From: Escherichia coli
GTDB taxonomy: Bacteria > Pseudomonadota > Gammaproteobacteria > Enterobacterales > Enterobacteriaceae
Length of the DNA: 64,000 bases
Direction: 5' to 3' (one strand)
Assembly: GCF_013315695.1 (NCBI RefSeq)
Contig: NZ_CP054353.1
In this document: piece by piece, positions 43,522-43,688 of the stretch
How the letters are laid out: each line of letters opens with the position of its first letter
How positions within the stretch are numbered: the stretch's first letter is position 1
Made by a program: the position numbers and the translations under genes
Notes under the pieces: generated by a model
Database searches by the model: none
What the model saw: only the letters and a program-made list of their open reading frames with translations
What the model was told of the DNA's origin: nothing

Positions 43522-43688
43522 AACGCCTGTGCGGTGAACTCAGGTTCCGGGGAAATAGTGTCCATCATTGTAATGGACACTATCATGGGAAATGGCTCTG
43601 TCACATCAACAACTACAGTTGCTGACCAGCCGGATGGATGATTTTTTCGCAACCAGAAGACGCTGCCTCCGATCCGGCTTACAACAAG

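Follow-up and report, generated by a model that had tools for sequence, protein, structure and literature searches.

Why does a perfect inverted repeat sit in the 167-bp gap between an LRR protein gene and the convergent gene dadX of Escherichia coli, and does it do anything there? The DNA analysed here (the window) is a stretch of 64,000 nucleotides from contig NZ_CP054353.1 (assembly GCF_013315695.1). The part of interest is the ldcA-cvrA-[LRR]-dadX-dadA region, 100% identical to strain MS 21-1. A first-pass annotation, made from the letters of the window alone, had singled out the palindrome and offered three readings of it: a stabilising 3′ stem-loop, a protein-binding palindrome, or a recombination scar marking the boundary of the islet with the LRR gene. 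Our answer is that the palindrome is an ordinary transposon scar, and neither a terminator nor a new regulatory site. The genes and the parts of the palindrome are as follows.

42085-43521 (+), LRR protein gene of 478 aa, from the list of open reading frames, matching Pfam LRR_4 (E 6e-7)
43555-43565 (+), left arm of the palindrome, ATAGTGTCCAT, which is nt 51-61 of the insertion sequence (IS) relic described below
43566-43572 (+), loop, CATTGTA
43573-43583 (+), right arm, ATGGACACTAT, containing the GGA, which in live elements precedes the tnpA start by 9-13 nt
43689-44759 (-), dadX, the convergent neighbour, from the list of open reading frames

The palindrome is real: ATAGTGTCCAT-cattgta-ATGGACACTAT forms an inverted repeat of two perfectly matched 11-bp arms around a 7-nt loop, with the sequence and stem first described. 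Its place had been misjudged. It was put at 43545-43573, about 25 bp after the LRR stop codon; it lies 10 bp further to the right, at 43555-43583, and begins 33 nt beyond the end of the TAG at 43519-43521. On the other side, 105 nt separate its end from the stop codon of dadX. That no U-run follows the stem was correct and holds on both strands, with CAUGGGAAAU after the plus-strand stem and UUCCCCGGAA after the minus-strand stem.

The first clue to its origin is the company it keeps in other replicons. With a 41-nt query around the palindrome, the matches besides the chromosomal locus are IS66 elements annotated as ISCro1, on plasmids and chromosomes (1,254 plasmid places), and they lie at the start of tnpA. 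RefSeq names the genes of the matching elements ‘IS66-like element ISCro1 family transposase’, and their products carry PF01527 (HTH_Tnp_1, TnpA), PF05717 (TnpB_IS66) and PF03050/PF13007/PF13005 (DDE_Tnp_IS66, TnpC). A longer query (196 nt, blastn against plasmids) aligned window positions 43505-43592 with an element on plasmid p4 of Pantoea stewartii at 78.9% identity over 90 bp (E 3e-11), and returned partial left ends in Shigella pINV (near ospG), in Pantoea ananatis and on an Enterobacter plasmid. Pairwise, the same part of the window matches nt 1-90 of the 2,675-bp Pantoea element with E 5e-17 and ISCro1 with E 1e-9. Homology begins exactly at the G of a GTAA, at 43505, and fades past about 43600.

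43505-43600 (+), IS66-family left-end relic of about 96 bp: terminal inverted repeat (GTAAGCGTTTTATGTAGAACGCCTG...), variable segment, hairpin and vestigial tnpA start
43585-43587 (+), ATG where alignment with live elements places the tnpA start; here it heads just an 18-codon open reading frame

The same G is where the live elements begin. About 30 independent insertions in viral contigs, found through a scan for TnpA, fix the left boundary of the IS at the G of GTAA; the scan turned up only the two IS types already known, and it served to set boundaries, not to measure covariation. The terminal repeat of the window, GTAAGCGTTTTATGTAGAACGCCTG, compares with GTAAGCGTCACATTTAAACCGTCTG in Pantoea and with GTAAGCGACTCATCAGAACCGT at the right end of ISCro1, and it opens with the GTAA(G/C)C expected of IS66. 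The Pantoea element ends in the inverted repeats GTAAGCGTCACATTTAAACCGTC and GTAAGCGTCGCATTCAGACCGT, with a TnpB_IS66 gene downstream; ISCro1 has a length of 2,699 bp, and an intact copy is flanked by an 8-bp duplication, GTCCCAGT. Counted from the GTAA end, the first base of the palindrome is nt 51 in the window, as it is in 11/11 aligned elements. Just beyond it, the window reads CACTAT-C-ATG-GGA-AAT, and live elements read CACTAT-CGC-GTG-AAA-CAC-CGG or CGT-ATG-AAA (MKHRTW...). Homology thus identifies the palindrome firmly as the conserved subterminal hairpin of an IS66-family left end, of the ISCro1 or Pantoea-type subgroup.

This subgroup comprises ISCro1 of Citrobacter rodentium and E. 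coli plasmids, together with relatives in Pantoea, Erwinia, Klebsiella, Salmonella, Edwardsiella and Kosakonia. The relic shares its GTAAGCG terminal repeat and the layout of nt 1-95; the hairpin stands at nt 51 in both, with arms of the same sequence, and the tnpA start falls at the corresponding place. Over nt 1-90 the identity is 70-79%. It differs in that only the left ~96 bp are there, without tnpA, tnpB, tnpC or the right inverted repeat (IR), and in its shorter loop (7 nt) and the 2 nt missing before the start codon. When positions 41400-43760 were compared with either full element, no match was found to tnpA, tnpB, tnpC or the right IR; what remains is an end and not a complete IS. Because only one IS end survives, an 8-bp target duplication and a right IR are not demonstrable at this locus. 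The nearest live element found shows 21% divergence from the relic, and none of the RefSeq records inspected annotates 43505-43600. The relic is thus a new feature, an unannotated IS66 relic in most E. coli, K-12 included.

Could the inverted repeat instead be accidental, or be one of the REP/BIME extragenic palindromes? Its setting would suit such readings, since it is extragenic, lies between convergent genes and has a REP-like hairpin as a neighbour 45 nt away:

43628-43679 (no strand assigned), REP-like hairpin, AGCCGGAT ... ATCCGGCT, with a 36-nt interior holding a T6 run

However, the REP consensus (GCCGGATG-type) occurs in this neighbouring hairpin and is absent from the palindrome. Chance is a poor explanation too. 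The window holds four perfect hairpins (stem of at least 11 bp, loop of 3-12 nt) against a mean of 0.17 per window in composition-matched random sequences. The palindrome cannot be put down to chance because it stands at the same offset in many independent copies of IS66-family elements: the same 29-33 bp recur at that offset in mobile elements of other genera. The first-pass annotation had suggested searching for further copies. The arm sequence is unique in the window; apart from IS66 elements, the search of E. coli chromosomes found one full copy per chromosome and no second one at full length. The IS homology refutes a chance or REP origin, to which we give practically no weight. The three further perfect 11-bp-stem hairpins of the window lie at 19134-19161, 59403-59428 and 61360-61384, with loops of 6, 4 and 3 nt.

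Another candidate was a complete miniature element (MITE) spanning 43505-43682, with the IS66 right end read as ...GGCTTAC. This was rejected: the supposed right end, ATCCGGCTTAC, aligns with ATCCGGCATAC, an arm of the ancestral hairpin in E. albertii, and it has no match to the right IR of the IS.

If the palindrome is part of an IS66-family left end, what is it in the elements that are still mobile? Left ends were collected where TnpA is 54-92% identical to the Pantoea protein, and 11 IS sequences were aligned. Both arms are identical to those of the window in copies from Salmonella, Symbiopectobacterium, Erwiniaceae, Klebsiella, Edwardsiella, Kosakonia and a Pantoea plasmid, and the left arm is identical in an Enterobacter copy as well. 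The loop follows the pattern CAT-(T-rich)-A and has 8-14 nt in 10 live elements. In the eleventh (plasmid of Enterobacter sp. JBIWA005, locus L105, around position 3572), an IS3-family element has inserted exactly in the T-rich loop; because it interrupts the loop, the right arm of this copy was not scored. Variable columns among the 11 sequences number 4/22 in the stems, 8/25 in the terminal IR (nt 1-25), 18/25 in nt 26-50 and 8/14 in the loop. In all 10 aligned elements with an intact right arm, the arm ends 3 nt before the tnpA start, be it GTG, ATG or TTG.

Pairing is retained along with sequence. Across the alignment, 98.3% of the cells are paired, seven of the 11 pairs are invariant and one covaries: in two elements, ATAATGTCCAT pairs with ATGGACATTA(T/G), an exchange of G:C for A:U, and ISCro1 and the Shigella copy hold the A.C intermediate of that exchange. 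Three other IS66 subgroups (ISEc23 and two more, with TnpB 66-83% identical) have a hairpin of largely different sequence in this place (predicted energies, -10.7 to -15.7 kcal/mol), which stops 2-9 nt short of the tnpA ATG. Judged from these alignments, IS66-family left ends carry a strongly conserved hairpin just before tnpA, and this is new: no description of it was found in the searchable literature. For transposon specialists, it puts a conserved hairpin directly 5′ of tnpA in a family whose regulation is poorly understood. The loop may be a hotspot for mutation and insertion, given the IS3 element in the Enterobacter copy and the loop’s standing as the most variable part within E. coli (3/7).

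The position of the hairpin suggests a role. Only 3 nt separate it from the start codon, and the one Shine-Dalgarno-like sequence, the GGA (a weak match), lies in its 3′ arm; for these two reasons we infer that, in the leader of the tnpA mRNA, the hairpin most likely occludes translation initiation, which would keep expression of the transposition genes low. In this and in the three other subgroups, a hairpin is so placed that it would cover the region where ribosomes bind for the first IS gene, as expected of an occluding leader. There is precedent in IS10 and IS50, where inverted repeats of the left end sequester the transposase translation start in read-through transcripts (fold-back inhibition). 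The likeness lies in a stable hairpin near the left end, directly 5′ of the first IS gene and over its ribosome-binding region. Unlike IS10/IS50, IS66 has no located internal promoter or transcription start in its left end, and the families are unrelated; no sigma-70 consensus promoter was found in the three IS left ends scanned. The strand on which the hairpin would fold is signalled inconsistently: U.G pairs favour folding of the sense strand, the A.C mismatch of ISCro1 would be G.U on the antisense strand, and these cases conflict.

The covariation is thin (seven of the 11 pairs never vary), and the strong conservation of the arm sequence fits a sequence-specific site, recognised by a protein or a nucleic acid, equally well. 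The arms might then act in live elements as a duplex site for TnpA, which has HTH domains, or for TnpC, as an operator or a subterminal site of the transpososome, and not through RNA structure. The invariant pairs, arms more conserved than the terminal IR (4/22 against 8/25 variable columns) and the (A/G)TGGAC(A/G) that recurs in the 3′ arm of the three other subgroups all speak for this. Yet the spacer between the arms ranges over 7-14 nt, which on B-DNA would put the half-sites more than half a helical turn out of register; the other subgroups keep the hairpin in place despite changing most of its stem sequence; and there is the one compensatory change. A duplex site is on balance unlikely, if still worth keeping in mind. 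The same evidence bears on the protein-binding palindrome of the first-pass annotation, which the conservation of the arms suits and which the variable spacer suits poorly if a duplex DNA operator of fixed spacing is meant.

Occlusion of tnpA initiation in live elements is thus the reading that we carry forward, and the one with which we join the other parts: it is very likely that the palindrome belongs to an IS66 left-end relic, with a hairpin that in live elements most likely occludes tnpA initiation and a copy here that is probably inert. A more ambitious version would make the pre-tnpA hairpin (about nt 50-80) a family-wide control element, gating tnpA translation or bound in its folded state by an IS66 protein, with the E. 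coli copy still active as a decoy or target for arriving ISCro1-type elements or as a protector of the 3′ end of the LRR mRNA. We regard this version as doubtful.

How the relic came to lie beside dadX can be read from the islet around it.

41500-43658 (no strand assigned), islet of 2,159 bp that E. albertii, Citrobacter and short-type E. coli lack; its insertion splits the ancestral cvrA-dadX hairpin

The islet contains, in order, an IS1414-like fragment, a 53-codon open reading frame, the LRR gene, the IS66 relic and about 58 bp of no assigned origin; the palindrome lies 75 nt inside its right edge. The islet is bracketed by GA(T/C)GCT, with GATGCT at 41494-41499 and GACGCT at 43659-43664, and the dadX-proximal arm of the REP-like hairpin at 43628-43679 is an arm of the ancestral intergenic hairpin. 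The two hexamers may be remains of a target-site duplication; the ends of the islet are without convincing inverted repeats. An IS66-family element thus once stood at the 3′ end of the LRR gene, with only its first ~96 bp surviving. The relic and the IS1414-like fragment flank an LRR islet that was inserted into the loop of the ancestral, terminator-like cvrA-dadX hairpin, and most E. coli lineages subsequently lost the LRR gene and retained the relic. For the LRR gene the gain is a clearer setting: it belongs to an islet with an IS scar on either side, which entered the ancestral dadX/cvrA hairpin and has since disappeared from most lineages.

The IS end has even become part of the LRR reading frame. 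Across 43505 it reads ...AAA CGT AAG CGT TTT ATG TAG, and because GTAAGCG starts at 43505, inside this frame, the terminal repeat of the IS encodes the last five codons (residues (R)KRFM) and the stop. E. coli and Shigella alone have homologues of the LRR protein with more than 74% identity; no close orthologue was found in other species, and the next matches, at 35-40% identity, are in unrelated freshwater contigs. The C-terminal third of the protein is highly acidic and repetitive (LEELEDLDDLMDLEFLDD...), and alleles range from 437 to 486 aa. Some sources name its homologues type III effector or invasion plasmid antigen.

The distribution of the locus agrees with this course of events. Among 5,426 complete E. 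coli genomes, the 167-bp LRR-dadX spacer with the palindrome is present in 4,235 (78%) and the whole 2.4-kb cvrA-dadX interval (at least 80% covered) in 834. In about 1,100 genomes (e.g. DS566) all of this is missing, to within 6 bp of the dadX stop. The relic is absent from E. albertii, three Citrobacter species, Enterobacter asburiae and short-type E. coli, including the GTDB representative of E. coli; the dadX-cvrA spacer of these outgroups and short-type strains is 55-110 bp long and has one REP-like hairpin. The palindrome is therefore no conserved core intergenic sequence with a known role, the finding that the first-pass annotation had named as fatal to its readings: it occurs in 78% of genomes and in none of the outgroups, and has no annotated role. 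Two further observations concern cvrA, which the annotations of several lineages (O157:H7, DS566 and XJ34) give as a pseudogene lacking its C-terminus. Its last ~100 bp have 82% identity between the window and the short-type strain DS566, and the 3′ end of the gene differs between the locus types.

Comparison with the K-12 cvrA-dadX interval, also proposed in the first-pass annotation, was informative. K-12 MG1655 has the palindrome at 1240055-1240083, unannotated, within a relic at about 1240038-1240133, and the final ~74 bp of the LRR gene persist there beside ‘IS1414 (partial)’ and ymgM. Since both the palindrome and this tail of the LRR gene are retained, the palindrome is not the junction between the K-12 arrangement and that of the window. 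Of the meanings first proposed, the recombination scar at the islet boundary thus comes closest, as the scar of an IS66 relic and not as a boundary between K-12 and the window; the interpretation as a whole is partly supported, for the scar but not for a stabiliser of dadAX, as set out below. For annotation, the K-12 dadX-cvrA region, a neutral integration site, is found to hold an unannotated IS66 left-end relic adjoining a partial IS1414.

Has the hairpin found new work at its present site? It might have been co-opted as a 3′ stabiliser, or as an element for factor-dependent termination or pausing, of the LRR mRNA (plus strand) or the dadAX mRNA (minus strand). As RNA it is stable (-14.3 kcal/mol on the plus strand, -17.6 kcal/mol on the minus strand), it lies within the 3′ untranslated region of both convergent genes, and the minus-strand intergenic RNA folds better than its shuffles (z = -3.2). 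A stem-loop between convergent genes is also what intrinsic terminators and REP elements of E. coli look like. Unlike intrinsic terminators, however, the palindrome has no U-tract on either strand, only 4/11 of its stem pairs are G:C, and the mapped 3′ end of dadAX is elsewhere; the combination of a G+C-rich stem, a U-tract and a 3′ end at the tract is thus not found here. A terminator scan did not call the palindrome, and a scan of 41400-43900 with Rfam 15 returned only chance-level matches (E > 1), to eukaryotic families.

RNA 3′-end mapping in K-12 bears directly on the dadX strand. The dominant Term-seq 3′ end is at 1240020 (window 43618), 34 nt short of the palindrome and at the foot of the separate REP-like hairpin, and none is listed at the palindrome itself, within 1240055-1240090 (Adams et al. 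2021, PMC7815308). The study kept the strongest peak per 100-bp cluster, so that a minor end may be missed; it also lists a Rho-dependent end at 1240513, antisense to cvrA (PMC7815308). A 3′ stem-loop stabilising dadAX, the first of the original proposals, is not supported by this 3′ end of K-12, which precedes the palindrome.

Sequence variation gives no sign of a local role either. The stems are still perfect in most sampled E. coli loci, which would favour co-option, but constraint in the parent IS already accounts for that. In 17 sampled loci, one of the 22 stem positions varies, much as in the flank (2/50 in the first 50 nt of the relic), and the loop varies at three of its seven positions (CATTGTA, CCTTTTA, TCTTTTA and CATTTTA). 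The right-arm variant, ATGGGCACTAT, found in O157, O145 and two other sampled loci, makes a U.G pair in the plus-strand RNA. Because the stems change at about the rate of the flanks, there is no evidence for a function of the relic hairpin where it now stands. The ~1,100 genomes without the palindrome also argue against one, as does an oriC-mioC cassette placed in the dadX-cvrA intergenic region of K-12, which, according to its authors, harmed neither growth nor physiology (PMC9210752). Co-option is therefore very unlikely in our estimate; the relic hairpin is probably inert at its present chromosomal site, and one candidate regulatory palindrome is removed from consideration.

Some smaller observations concern the IS fragments. 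A fragment of Shigella flexneri pINV (locus L104) has an ISCro1-like left-end remnant with the same hairpin at 3507-3606, just downstream of ospG and ipaH9.8; it is another LRR-effector neighbourhood flanked by ISCro1-type IS. At the other end of the E. coli islet, window positions 41512-41613 (K-12 1240188-1240289, ‘IS1414 (partial)’) have 15-bp inverted repeats, GCCTGAGCCTGTAAT and ATTGCAGGCTCTGGC, around 72 bp. This segment is oppositely oriented in the window and in K-12, where it borders directly on the deletion by which the LRR gene was lost; it looks as though the stretch between the short repeats was inverted and a deletion then followed. The 53-codon open reading frame at 41585-41746 (+) begins MDDKPLQALA..., compared with MDDKQLQAQA... 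for K-12 YmgM, and in K-12 the inverted segment directs the YmgM start into sequence antisense to the 3′ end of cvrA. Given the shared start and the inverted segment, YmgM seems to be a chimera made by the rearrangement.
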